Origin: Octopus sinensis
Lineage: Eukaryota
Assembly (NCBI RefSeq): GCF_006345805.1
Contig: NC_043000.1
Span: 8,370,001-8,434,000, forward strand
Direction of reading: 5' to 3'
Length of the DNA: 64,000 nucleotides
A program made the position numbers. The first letter of the stretch is position 1. Each line of letters opens with the position of its first letter. Below, in pieces: positions 12,001-57,000 of the stretch.

Positions 12001-15000
12001 TTACTAAAGTTTAAAATTTCTGAATTAGTAAATCTTAGATAATGTCAAGGATATGTTACTTCTATTTAATAGGTTTTGTAATATGATACCTTTATATAAC
12101 TATAAAACAAATTAAACTATAGCTAAGAAGACATCATAAATGTCAGAAGGCAGTTTTACTATCATAGTAAACTATAGGACTTAAATCAAATGCTTTTATA
12201 TTTTGTGAGAAAGTTAAATTTATTTTAACTTATGATTCTGGACAACAATTATGATTAACTTTTTAAAATATATAGAAATATCAACAAGTAAAACCTGCCA
12301 AGACTTTGGAAATTATTATGAAATGTTCACATTGTTTATGTGGTAATATATAGATTTTGCTACAAAATTTTAACTTAACATCCATGGCTAAAGAAGAAAT
12401 TGTTCATAATTTAAGCCTATTATTGTATTATTTGAATAGCAAATACTTAATGATTTTGAAAATGAGGAAAAATTATTGGTTTTGATTTAAAGATGACATA
12501 ATTCCTTGAGTTTTGTGATTGGAATGGCAAATTGATTGAAAATTTCCTTGATACTGATTCCTTTCTGACTGGAAAGAGGAATTATCAAAAGAATAGATTC
12601 AGCAACATTGAATTGATTTTAAAAAATTCATTATGGTCCTGCTGGATAATGTATAGGAATATGTAATATGCATTGCCCAAGATTTTAATTTTCATTAGCA
12701 AACCAGGTGTGTGTTCGGCTTATATTTTAATTAATTCCATTAACTTTACCATCTTACTGTGACCAACTTTTCCATTTATAGGTGAATAGTTGGCCTTTAA
12801 AGAAGATACGCTACTCTAAAAGTTCTTGCCCCAATAATTCATGCGAGATATCTAATCACCTTTCAACATGAAAGGAGATGGTGTTGGGGTTGAAGAACTG
12901 AAATATCATAAATATTCCTAAAACTTTCAGTTAAATCTTCTTTTATAGGTTGTTATTTTTATAATTGATGTGATTCATTCTTGATTACATGTTGCTTGTA
13001 AGGTCATCAGGCTATTTCCATCATATTTGATGATACTTGCCTGTCAATAAAGAATACAAGCAAGCAAAACATTAAAGAAAAAAAAAACTACAACAAAAAG
13101 TAAGGAATTAGTTATTTCTGAATTCACTTAAATCTATTATTCTAGAAGAGATTGTCTGAAATTGCAAATGTTTGTGTCAATCAATAAATATTCCATTAAA
13201 AATTCATTCGTAATGAATTTTCTAATCTTTATTTCAAATACTTTTAACATAATTACTGAGATTTCTAATACAGAGAATATCAAGAGTAAATTGGTTATAT
13301 AAAAATTTTGTCACATATGGTTACATTCTGAGCTTTTAAATGTTTATTATCTGCTTTGATATAAACTTTTTTTAGAGGTGTTATATTCTTATTATAGAGA
13401 TGTTGTATTCTTGAAGGTCTTGCCATAATTTGAAATTACATAACATAAAACATATTTTCTCAGTGGCTTCCAAATAATGTGAAAGTCAGTGGAAAATAGG
13501 GTCCACATTATGAAATTTCATATTACAGCAAGATTTCCTGGAATGCAACATTACCTTATTGTAGGGGATGCTTGTATTTTTCACAATAAAACATAGTTGG
13601 TTAAAGGTAAAATGTGATGTTATTTGTTCAAATTTTCATTTATTATGAGAGTTAGATGTGTATAAACAAATCTTTGTTGTCAGTTATACAAACCATATAC
13701 ATTCAGTAACAGTTCTTTGTAGTATATTTCCTTGCTATTATTGTTGAGAGAACACAATATTCAATGTGTTGTTTATCTTCAGACTTTTGTTTTAAGATAT
13801 TCTGTATGTTTCTCCTTTTTTATTGTATCAGGACTAGTTGTTGTAATATATTTGTACTTCACGCTTTTCATATACTGCTGTTGTTTCCAAGTGATATAAC
13901 TTTCCATTTGTCAGAGACAAATAGGTTTTCAGTGATTCTTTAGTAACAGAATAGTTTAGTTAAATGTTTGAAGCAGTTTATGATTTGTGTTGTAGAAAGT
14001 TTTATCTGAAAATGTATTAGCAAAGTGGGGGAAAATAACTCAAAGGATTTTTGTAACATTTTGAACCTATTGTTGTTTGTGTTGTTTAAATTGGTAGGTT
14101 TCATGTTTTTTATTCTACCTTGTGGTTGCAAGAATAAATGCCATCCTCTTTCAGATACACATGGAGATGGTATGTATGGTGCAGATGAAGGAGTGGTTTT
14201 GACTTCTCCTCCCTCAACATGTGATCGTGATGAGAGCTATGCAAAAGGGATTCCGCCGTACGGCTTGCTGACACATTCATCACAAGATGGGTTTTCTTCT
14301 TCCGATAAAACAGGTGATGTCACTTCTCCTGCTGATGCTTGTTATGAGTTTCATACTGCTACACCTGACATTACTTCCCCTCCATCACCTGATTCTCATG
14401 GTGATATAAGTATTTTATCAGCTCAAGGGCAACAAGTTCAACCTTCGTCCCTCCACGAAAGTGTTAGCCCTCATGTAATTGAAAAGGATGTAAAACCTCA
14501 TACGATAACTTTTAGTACTTCGGCTAATCCCAAACCCCAAATTACAGGAATGGAGTTGAATATTGAAAAAACTGAATTTCCTTCACTGCAGGGTTTAGAA
14601 AGTTGTGATAATGGTACCAAGTCTTTCAATAAATCTCAGTGCCTGCCTTCTGAAACAAATGTCAAAAGTATGGATGTAGTAGATAGTTCTAAACCTTCAT
14701 TAGAACATGTTTCCGAGCTTGAAGTTGATGTCAGCAAAGCACCCCAGTCTGATGGAACATCTGCTGCAAGCAGCAAATCTGAAGGGAGCAAAGAAACTTT
14801 GACATTAATTTCATCAGAATCTTGTCAAATATCTATTACCAAAACTGAAGAAGAAAGTGATTCCGAATCTGAAGAAAATTCTGTTATAGAGAGAGATCCC
14901 TCACTGCTGGACTCTGATTCAACAGGTTACGGAGACCAGAAGTCTGACACTGATAGCTCGTATGTTGAAGAAGAAGAAGTGTCAATTTCTGATTCAGACG

Positions 15001-54000: not shown

Positions 54001-57000
54001 ATGACTCTCCCCAGACACAACAAAATACGCTTCAACACATGAACTCACATAAAGAATCTTGCAATCCAAATCCAAAAAACGAAGTAACCAAATGATGAAT
54101 AATAAAACATTGAAATTGAATCAGTGCATGTTTATATCATTAGAATAATGACCCTCCCAAAACACTACAAATATATAATTGTAATTTTGTTTTACTTAAA
54201 TGTTAGTTTGCTCCTCAAATTTTGTAGTCTTGACCCTTTAGTATTCAGGCTTTTTTGTCAAATGCATTGCTTATTTATTTGCATTATTGTGAATCAATGA
54301 TGCATTATCTTGTAGCTTCAATATTTCAATGATGTGTTTGTATATTTTTCATGACATTGTTGGGTAGGTGTGAGAAGTTGGATCTAGTCAGTTTTAACAT
54401 AAAACAGATAGAATATTTGGACCAGATGTGGCCAGATTAAATGCTATAGGGCTAATTCTTTATTACATCAGTATCTCCTCTTTTACAAGAAGTTTGAATG
54501 AATAGTTAAGAAAAAATTCTTAAAAGATATTGAATTTGTAATTTTGAAATCTTGTTAATTTGTGCACTATTATTGATAAATATGTTGGTAATACTTAATT
54601 AATGTTTTGTTTACTTTTTCTTTCATTTATGTGCGATGTGCTATTTTCTTTATGTTTTTACGTAGCACGGCAAATAGCAGGAGCAGAACATTCCTCACCG
54701 TCACCAAGCTCTCGAAATGTTCGTTCTAAAATTGGATCTTTGGACAATGCTAGGCATACACCTGGTGGGGGAAATGTAAGTAATTTAGCAAGTCCTTTAA
54801 TAAATGTTTTGTACTGTCTTTCTCCGTGCACTGAGATGAATGCATGAGTGTATGTGTACAAAAAACAGGAAGAAAATATAACCCACATTGTCTCCATTCT
54901 GCTTTCTTTTTTATATTCCTCTCTTATACCTTCATTTCTTCTCTGTTTCTCTCTTCATCTAGTATTAGATGATAATTATCTGTGATGAAAAGAGGCTTAA
55001 TTTGAATTCTATGATGTTTTCCTCTCATTAACTACCACCTTGTTTTTGGCAGTATAGTTGGTGTTAATATAAATCTCTGGCGCATGTATTTATTTACCCT
55101 TCTTGAAAGCTTATCTCTCATGAAGTGGCACTCTTACAGCTTTCTTGACCTCAACTAAAGGAATGCAGTTCAAATATGCTCGTGGCACATTCTAACCTGT
55201 AAGCGAGCCATTCACTGTATTTTGCCATGGAGAAAATTTCACACTGTAGACAAATGGTGTAAACACCTAAATCAGCTCACAGCGCCACCTACCCAGACTG
55301 TAAGATGCAAGCATTTTGGAGTGGTTATCTCCTCTTCAGTCACAGAAACCAGAGAAGAATAATTTATTTTCCCTATGAACACAAATGCTACCAATGAGAG
55401 AGTTTAATCTAAAGGTCTGTCTAATACAGATTTATCTCCTCATCAACTAATCCACTTGTAGCTCACATTTAATTTCTGATAAAATAACAAATAAGTTGGC
55501 TTGACAAATTTCTTTCTTTTTCATCTTATTTGCATAGGCACAGTGCCATGCATTTGGTGGAGGGAACTGTGAATTATATCAATCGTAGTCCTTGACCAAT
55601 ATTTTAGCTTATTGACCCTATAAAGATGTCATGATTCTGTATGGATGTCAGGTAAAGTCCGCAATAGTGAGATTTGAAATTAGGACGAGGAGAGCTGCTT
55701 TAACATATTGTGAAACATTTTGTGTATTGCTCTACCAATTCTGCCAACGCCTCACCCTTTACAATCAATATTAATAATGTTAATGGCTGTTTTATATGAC
55801 ACATACCAGTACATGAATCATTATTTTAGTGGCTGTGTGGTAAGTAGCTTGCTAACCAACCACATGGTTCTAGGTTCAGCTCCACAGCGTGGCATCTTGG
55901 GCAAGTGTCTTCTGCTATAGCCCCGGGCCGACCAGTGAGTGGATTTGGTAGATGGAAACTGAAAGAAGCCTGTCGTATATATGTATATATATATATAAGT
56001 GTGTGTGTATATGTTTGTGTGTGTGTTTGTCCCCCTAGCATTGCTTGACAACCGATGCTGGTGTTTTTACGTCCCCGTAACTTAGCGGTTTGGCAAAAGA
56101 GACCGATAGAATAAGTACTGGGCTTACAAAGAATAAGTCCCGGGGTCGATTTGCTCGACTAAAGGTGGTGCTCCAGCATGGCCGCAGTCAAATGACTGAA
56201 ACAAGAAAAAGAGTAAAAGAGTGTATATAATATTATATATAATACTGATGTGTATAATGTTTATAATGTGTATACAAGCATGGAATGGTTCTACCTATAA
56301 TATTTTGTCTATGAGAAACTTCTCAAAGGAATTGTGTGTTAAAGACACAGGGCATCATTTAGAATGCCAGTGGATTACCAGACATGGTTGGTGTTTCAAC
56401 TTGATTTGATTTCCTCACTGAGCTCAACCAAATATACTTGTTTCGGTAGAGAAATCAGTCAGGAATGCATCGACTGATTGGTGCAAAAGCAGGCCAGGCT
56501 GGAATCAAATTATATGCAGCATCAGATTAGAATACCAAATACCAGGGTGTATAATATTTATGTGTATACAAATGTGGAATGGCACTGGGCTATCATATCT
56601 TGAAGCCATCACCACTCTTGTGACCCTCCTCCTTCTTCCCCTCCTTGCTCCTGCATCTCTCCGCCTCCCCTCCTCCTCCTATAATTTTCATTTTTATATG
56701 TTGCGTGACATAGTTGGGTTTTTGTAAAGCATCTTTTATGAAAGATGCTGAATATGAAAGTATTATTATTATTTTTATTATTATTATTATTTTTGATTTC
56801 TTGATTTCTTACCTTTTGGTTTGGTTGATGATCTGCATTGATTTTGTTTTGTATTGGAAGTCAAAGACATCAGGGAAGACTGGCAGATCTAAGGATAGTC
56901 CAAGGAAGAAAAAATCAAAGGTTGGAATTCACACTTGTATTATGCAGCCATTCCGACTACCAAAGCTCTCCAAAACATTATTCCTTGGCACACTCTGATG

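Follow-up and report, generated by a model that had tools for sequence, protein, structure and literature searches.

We analyzed a 64,000-nucleotide (nt) stretch of the Octopus sinensis genome (contig NC_043000.1, positions 8,370,001 to 8,434,000 of the forward strand). This whole stretch is referred to as the window, and it is free of N. Two features on its plus strand are the subject of this report. The first is a giant coding block of about 14.5 kb. The second is a pair of short exons downstream of the block, named exons B and C, which resemble the tubulin-binding repeats of tau and related microtubule-associated proteins (MAPs). Splice sites were scored with position weight matrices (PWMs) that use approximate consensus frequencies and are untrained on this organism, so that the scores have relative meaning only. 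The features that define the block and the exons, numbered from the first nt of the window, are as follows, with a slash marking the splice boundary.

14138-14154, plus strand: pyrimidine-rich tract atgccatcctctttc, then the acceptor AG (direct reading; PWM 4.9)
14155-20865, plus strand: unique acidic N-terminal part of the block, 2,237 codons, rich in S/E/K/T, no in-frame stop, isoelectric point (pI) about 4.4
20866-27204, plus strand: tandem array of 24-nt units coding for 8-residue P/E/V/K/A units, identified by Tandem Repeats Finder (TRF)
27205-27680, plus strand: unique acidic stretch past the array, open in frame; pI 4.15 and net charge -22 (27207-27680)
27681-28659, plus strand: basic K/S-rich tail, 326 residues, pI 10.25, net charge +42, K 18.4%, S 20.2%
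28660-28664, plus strand: weak GT donor GTTGA, overlapping an in-frame TGA (28662-28664); PWM -2.48
51010-51050, plus strand: candidate 41-nt micro-exon, phase 1 to 0, 13 full codons, QLYDQMEYDENER, recognized by splice sites and phase only
53343-53529, plus strand: repeat exon B, 187 nt, phase 0 to 1, acceptor TTTTATAG, donor CGG/GTAAGC, matching PF00418
54666-54775, plus strand: repeat exon C, 110 nt, phase 1 to 0, donor AAT/GTAAGT, matching PF00418

The block extends from 14155 to 28659 on the plus strand, a length of 14,505 nt, and its two ends share a frame. The last nt of the acceptor AG is 14154, which sets the exon start at 14155 in phase 1. It is the sole acceptor scoring above 2.2 ahead of 14592. 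The GC content steps up at 14155, from 0.296 to 0.416, and back down at 28660, from 0.412 to 0.296. The reading frame has no stop among the unique codons of 14155-20865; in the other two frames there are 182 and 255. Likewise, 27205-28661 contains no stop in 485 unique codons, compared to 27 and 64 stops in the other two frames. The absence of stops in 2,237 and 485 unique codons, when the other frames contain between 27 and 255, indicates that the block is coding sequence and did not arise by chance. The block of about 14.5 kb is protein-coding.

The array on its own would be a poor guide to coding status. Several of its frames are open on both strands, including a minus-strand open reading frame (ORF) of 2,163 residues, and openness inside the array therefore proves nothing. 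These open frames are what would be seen if there were no gene at the locus, and the block were a purine-rich satellite with chance open frames. We find this explanation scarcely credible, because 6.7 kb and 1.46 kb of non-repetitive sequence are stop-free in one frame only, a motif conserved in three copies lies in that same open frame, and the steps in composition fall at the acceptor (14155) and where the open frame ends (28660). The long ORFs on the minus strand, of which the 2,163-residue ORF is the largest, are located largely or wholly inside the array and the purine-rich part of the block, where the AT/GC skew is found. They were taken as by-products of the block composition.

A second acceptor-like site is present inside the block. 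It reads ttccttcactgcag/GG at 14592, 437 nt past the exon start, has a high score (PWM 6.43), and is in frame at phase 0. It could be an alternative acceptor or plain coding sequence. Upstream of the block, no credible ATG first exon with a phase-1 donor was found in 1-14154, and all 16 candidates are microsatellite-like. TA/CA-type microsatellite blocks are located in this region at about 450-900, 5100-5450, 6000-8130 and 9450-10860, and ORF listings across them are full of YIYI and CVCV runs. The presence of these blocks makes the search for small upstream exons unreliable.

Exons B and C have good splice sites, contain PGGG/KIGS, and are in frame with each other. Exon B starts with a degenerate R1-like stretch ending in PGGGN, followed by repeat positions 1-19 and then an S/P-rich linker. 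Exon C starts with an S/P-rich linker, followed by ...SKIGSLDN..H.PGGGN, and ends just past PGGGN at GTAAGT. The Pfam and PDB searches were run exon by exon, or piece by piece for the block. Scanned singly against PF00418, which has a gathering cut-off of 27 bits, exon B scored 33.7 bits (residues 28-46 matching profile positions 1-19 of 31) and exon C scored 43.1 bits (residues 15-36 matching profile positions 11-31 of 31). Tau entries in the PDB matched exon B with E=1e-16 (1.6e-12 for native 441-aa tau), with residues 7-48 aligned to R1-R2. They matched exon C with E=7.7e-26 (9e-18 for native 441-aa tau). The similarity to these profiles and structures indicates that exons B and C encode genuine tubulin-binding repeats of the tau/MAP2/MAP4 type, in agreement with the initial annotation of this locus. 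That annotation also assigned PGGG/KIGS repeats to an exon at 51010. The assignment holds for the exons at 53343 and 54666; the peptide encoded by 51010-51050 is acidic and contains neither motif.

The end of exon C in phase 0 after PGGGN matches a feature of the MAPT repeat exons, which a passage of PMC4815063 reports to be flanked by phase-0 introns. The window contains two PGGG-ending repeats, where at least three in tandem close to the C-terminus would be expected of a tau/MAP2/MAP4 family member. The first is degenerate, and the second is split by an S/P-rich insert of about 30 residues. No further repeat exon was found up to position 64000, either with regular expressions or when exons B and C were searched with phmmer against the translation in six frames. 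The gene probably continues past the end of the window. At the other end, exon B contains no Met, and a TAG at 53340-53342 bars its upstream extension. Exon B needs upstream coding exons. Direct reading revealed no phase-1 acceptor inside it.

The frame of the block is interrupted within the array. In the assembled sequence it is open from 14010 to 23210, contains 23 stops from 23211 to 25647, and is open again from 25650. We used the CCTG anchors of the array to locate the breaks. Among the 375 anchor intervals, 368 are multiples of three and seven are not. The seven exceptions define two features.

23004-23062, plus strand: first frame break, an interval of 59 nt where 60 are expected, with AA where other units have AAA; the frame changes at about 23049-23075
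25319-25673, plus strand: patch with six further breaks of -1, -1, -1, +1, -1 and -2 nt within 355 nt, from the anchor intervals

The seven indels are 1-2 nt each, and their net change of -6 nt explains the common frame of the two block ends. The 752 codons that separate the first break from the patch are open in a frame of their own and encode the same units. In four of the seven indels a run of identical bases is shortened: AAA becomes AA in one, TT becomes T in another, and GG becomes G in two. A fifth indel removes one G at TGGAGG. By our own arithmetic, the probability that random placement puts six breaks within 355 nt of the 6.3 kb array is about 4e-6. We infer that the seven indels are assembly errors, and that the patch is of locally low quality. 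This is because they affect only seven of the 375 intervals, six of them are clustered, the net change is -6 nt, the 752 codons are open, and the unique C-terminal part is open in the original frame.

The 23 in-frame stops and the seven indels, as assembled, would instead be taken at face value if the breaks were real. The array would then be decaying, and the block would be a pseudo-exon or its product would be truncated at 23211. We consider this improbable. The 485 unique codons downstream have stayed open in the original frame only, six of the seven indels fall in one short patch that resembles low-quality sequence and not spread decay, and most of the indels are losses from base runs, as described above. 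An intron removing 23062-25673 was also considered. It was rejected, as this stretch is in-frame repeat coding sequence and no pyrimidine-rich acceptor was seen at its 3' end. The initial annotation of one 14,505-nt exon with a phase-1 acceptor and a phase-1 donor is sound in its length, acceptor and shared frame of the two ends. It requires correction for the frame, which is broken as assembled, and for the donor, which is weak. The block would have the matching phase 1 at its two ends that a switchable cassette exon needs only if the weak GT at 28660 serves as its donor.

The block was analyzed as separate in-frame pieces, and the frame breaks were left unmended. The three clean pieces sum to 4,718 residues and 514 kDa, and together with the patch the block has about 4,835 codons. 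It is composed of a unique acidic part (about 2,240 residues), the array (about 2,100 residues), a further acidic stretch (158 residues) and the basic tail (326 residues). The acidic pieces have pI values of 4.15-4.43 and a summed net charge of -659, to which the two pieces of 14155-20865 contribute -84 and -172 and the array contributes -381. The array is 6,339 nt long. TRF reported a period of 24 and about 253 copies, and also rendered the array with periods of 48, 72 and 120. The commonest units are PEEKPVEA, PEAKPVEA and PEVKPVEA, and regular expressions counted 202 units across the three clean pieces. E accounts for 31-33% of the array residues, P for 18-21%, and K for 13-14%. The acidic bulk of the block is thus followed by the basic tail and then by the repeats. 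This charge order along the strand is MAP2-like and agrees with what the initial annotation described. The tail of the block is also the sole basic S/K-rich stretch upstream of the repeats.

Several smaller repeats are found in the unique acidic part of the block.

16056-16415, plus strand: motif copy 1, from an alignment with 38 invariant columns; 77% DNA identity to copy 3 over 271 aligned positions
16575-16751, plus strand: 93-nt (31-residue) repeat, identified by TRF
16805-16990, plus strand: short tandem repeat with 14-residue units of the IKEEVKP.ET.P type, identified by a self-BLAST offset of 41 nt and by translation
16920-17279, plus strand: motif copy 2, 42% identity to copy 1
20409-20768, plus strand: motif copy 3, immediately before the array, 63% identical to copy 1

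The 14-residue units may resemble the repeats of MAP4. The motif present in three copies has the core DSQDI..P..T.L.KRLSLVEF...P.....R.GS.I. KRLS is found in every copy, RRGS in two copies, and RSGS in the third. We take KRLS and RRGS/RSGS to resemble sites of basophilic kinases such as protein kinase A. AlphaFold2 modeling of the three-row motif alignment gave a mean pLDDT of 57.8 and a pTM of 0.19, with two short helices at residues 50-66. The putative kinase sites flank this short predicted helix-Pro-helix. The model was too weak for a fold search.

Homology searches returned little for the block. No Pfam family matched the three clean pieces at E<=1. A PDB sequence search with the first 100 residues of the block found no relative. 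The motif has no PDB relative by sequence and no usable match in the ESM Atlas, and the last 484 residues of the block also gave no usable match in the ESM Atlas. The sole PDB match of the basic tail, to a mosquitocidal toxin, has E=0.49 and was set aside as chance.

The end of the block is located 24.7 kb from exon B and 26.0 kb from exon C, on the same strand. On balance, we lean toward the view that the block and the repeat exons belong to one tau/MAP-family gene with a giant PEVK-like projection domain. Five observations point in this direction. The block shares its strand with the exons, exon B lacks a start of its own, no coding-looking plus-strand ORF is found between them, no credible upstream ATG exon is available, and a basic tail precedes the repeats. 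The region between them, 28665-53342, contains no coding-looking plus-strand ORF of at least 35 residues. Sequences that passed the composition filter there are low-complexity runs or overlap the retroelement or repeats described below. The sequence by itself does not establish splicing between the block and the repeats.

A number of observations weigh against a single gene. The donor AAG/GTTGAA at 28659/28660 scores -2.48, compared to 3.56, 4.93 and 5.25 for the donors of the other three exons, and 27% of the 737 GT dinucleotides in the block score as high or higher. No GT donor above 1.44 is present in the last 660 nt of the block. The weak donor and the in-frame TGA at 28662 mean that the block could end at its own stop. 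Since exon B starts in phase 0 and has no upstream extension, a phase 1-to-0 exon is required between it and the block. The candidate at 51010-51050 (acceptor 5.03, donor 3.56) is the sole candidate of this class at these thresholds in 28665-53342. The same thresholds yielded seven candidate exons over 18 strand/phase classes, or about 0.4 per class, and finding one candidate such as that at 51010 is therefore expected by chance. The in-frame splice bridge through 51010 that the initial annotation proposed is thus not supported. In addition, the assembled frame is broken within the array, the Pfam and PDB searches revealed no part of the block similar to tau, MAP2 or MAP4, and the window contains two PGGG-ending repeats only.

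Two GC-type donor look-alikes are present near the end of the block, one in phase 1 at 28249 and one in phase 0 at 28314. From the phase-0 site the block could be joined in frame and directly to exon B, but GC donors are rare and the base preceding this site is A. Neither site was retained.

The weak donor, the stop 3 nt downstream of it, the lack of a good donor in the last 660 nt, the chance level of the bridging exon and the lack of homology to projection domains of the tau family together favor the main rival arrangement, which we consider less likely. The giant ORF would end at the TGA at 28662, as a separate upstream gene or as an alternative last exon without tubulin-binding repeats, and the 5' exons of the tau-like gene would be located elsewhere. 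A precedent is provided by the giant ankyrin exons of Drosophila, which are located at transcript 3' ends according to a section of PMC7401806. ATTAAA hexamers are found at 28854 and 28877, where they could serve such an end. However, by our own arithmetic a poly(A) hexamer should turn up roughly every 500 nt at this AT content, and they carry no weight. The repeat exons would also be left without visible N-terminal coding exons within 24.7 kb, or else an intron of the tau-like gene would contain the giant gene in the same orientation. Furthermore, the basic S/K-rich tail is located where the family has its basic region, ahead of the repeats.

Other elements are found in the window, in part within what would be the intron of a single gene.

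32156-33817, minus strand: ORF of 554 residues with a reverse transcriptase domain (RVT_1, E=3.7e-27, 95.8 bits); local GC content about 0.39-0.41
38695-38996 and 61763-62060: second dispersed repeat of about 300 nt, 83% identical
8456-8602 and 44846-44994: shorter inverted pair, 79% identical
40596-40800, 43894-44060 and 44759-45289: self-reverse-complement stretches (76-91%), palindromic or inverted repeats in the presumed intron
55828-56222 (plus strand), 57747-58154 (minus strand) and 59133-59544 (plus strand): interspersed element of about 400 nt in three copies with 86-91% identity to each other, similar in size to short interspersed elements

Judged by its domain match, 32156-33817 is a retroelement in the presumed intron. 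ARAGORN and Rfam scans of the window found no tRNA and no Rfam match.

In a single tau/MAP-family gene, the features above would be arranged as follows. The window would contain the 5' and central part of a tau/MAP2/MAP4-family gene in an AT-rich invertebrate genome. The block would be its projection-domain exon, and would reach the repeats through its weak donor in phase 1 and one or more small exons of phase 1 to 0. The sole candidate for this bridge is 51010-51050, which is unproven. Further repeat exons would be located past the end of the window. By analogy, the basic tail and the PGGG repeats may anchor the protein to the microtubule lattice. The presumably disordered domain, which is polyanionic and rich in proline, may, again by analogy, project from it as an entropic bristle or spring that separates microtubules and organelles. 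The three copies of the motif may be docking or phosphorylation modules.

The larger proposal, which we put forward tentatively and consider possible, is that one exon of some 14.5 kb contributes a projection domain of roughly 4,800 residues, with a mass above 500 kDa, containing about 250 PEVK-like 8-residue units and three regulated docking motifs. It would be by far the largest in the family, a giant-exon spacer that evolved independently of those in the giant ankyrins and Futsch and could set microtubule spacing in large axons. Our literature searches, with supplements outside their reach, did not turn up any description of a giant exon in the tau/MAP genes of invertebrates.

The closest known systems are high-molecular-weight MAP2, Big tau with its exon 4a, and MAP4. 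Like the gene proposed here, they have C-terminal PF00418 repeats, preceded by an acidic projection and a basic region, with the projection in one large exon. The 6.3 kb tandem array of 8-residue units sets the block apart from all three. The MAP2 projection family (MAP2_projctn, whose accession we take to be PF08377) has no match at E<=1 in the three pieces of the block. Exon 4a encodes about 250 residues that are poorly conserved in sequence, according to a passage of PMC9755724, compared to about 4,835 codons in the block. The lamprey MAPT of 2777 aa mentioned in that same passage was rejected as a precedent for a long protein, as the number is likely a misprint and the accompanying table gives 277.

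The PEVK region of titin is likewise a tandem, P/E/V/K-rich and presumably disordered polyampholyte, and many units of the array read PEVKP. The likeness is in composition only, and a spring or bristle role for the array would be by analogy. The titin PEVK unit is roughly 28 residues long, whereas the unit here has 8. PPAK, which we take to be the Pfam name of the titin PEVK motif, has no match at E<=1 in the block, and neither Ig nor Fn3 domains were found in it.

Drosophila Futsch, a MAP1B-like protein, is likewise a giant repeat-rich neuronal MAP, and the spacer logic proposed here is the same. As described in a part of PMC7337489, it is 5,495 residues long, with ends of the MAP1B type and without tau-type repeats, and microtubule spacing drops from about 110 nm to about 70 nm when it is lost. 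The microtubule-binding exons neighboring the block, in contrast, match PF00418. Pfam revealed no match to the MAP1B family in the block, although the ends of the protein may fall outside the window.

The giant ankyrins, including 440-kD ankyrin-B, ankyrin-G and Drosophila Ank2-L/XL, also use a single giant exon for a disordered, neuron-specific domain that is associated with microtubules. The giant exon of gAnkB is 8 kb long and contains a tandem unit of 12 residues, per the relevant section of PMC7401806. The exon here is nearly twice as long, and its unit has 8 residues. No ankyrin, ZU5 or death domain was found in the block with Pfam.

Among molluscs, MAPs have been described by Sundermann et al. 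as having shorter amino termini, in a passage of PMC4815063. The octopus MAP was found as three fragments of one gene by Gottschalk and Hefti, as stated in an excerpt of PMC8985376, and such fragmented models fit the idea that gene predictors split a locus of this kind. The locus described here is likely fragmented by predictors in the same manner (cf. the same excerpt of PMC8985376), and its assembly contains the patch with clustered indels that we flag. If the block is spliced to the repeats, the published view of short amino termini in mollusc MAPs, as given in that passage of PMC4815063, would need correction. Projection lengths in the tau family would then span about 20-fold, from the roughly 250 residues given for exon 4a in the PMC9755724 passage to about 4,800. 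The idea that projection length determines microtubule spacing would become testable in an animal with very large axons. The block would also be the third independent neuronal giant exon for a disordered microtubule spacer, after the giant ankyrins of vertebrates and flies covered in that section of PMC7401806.

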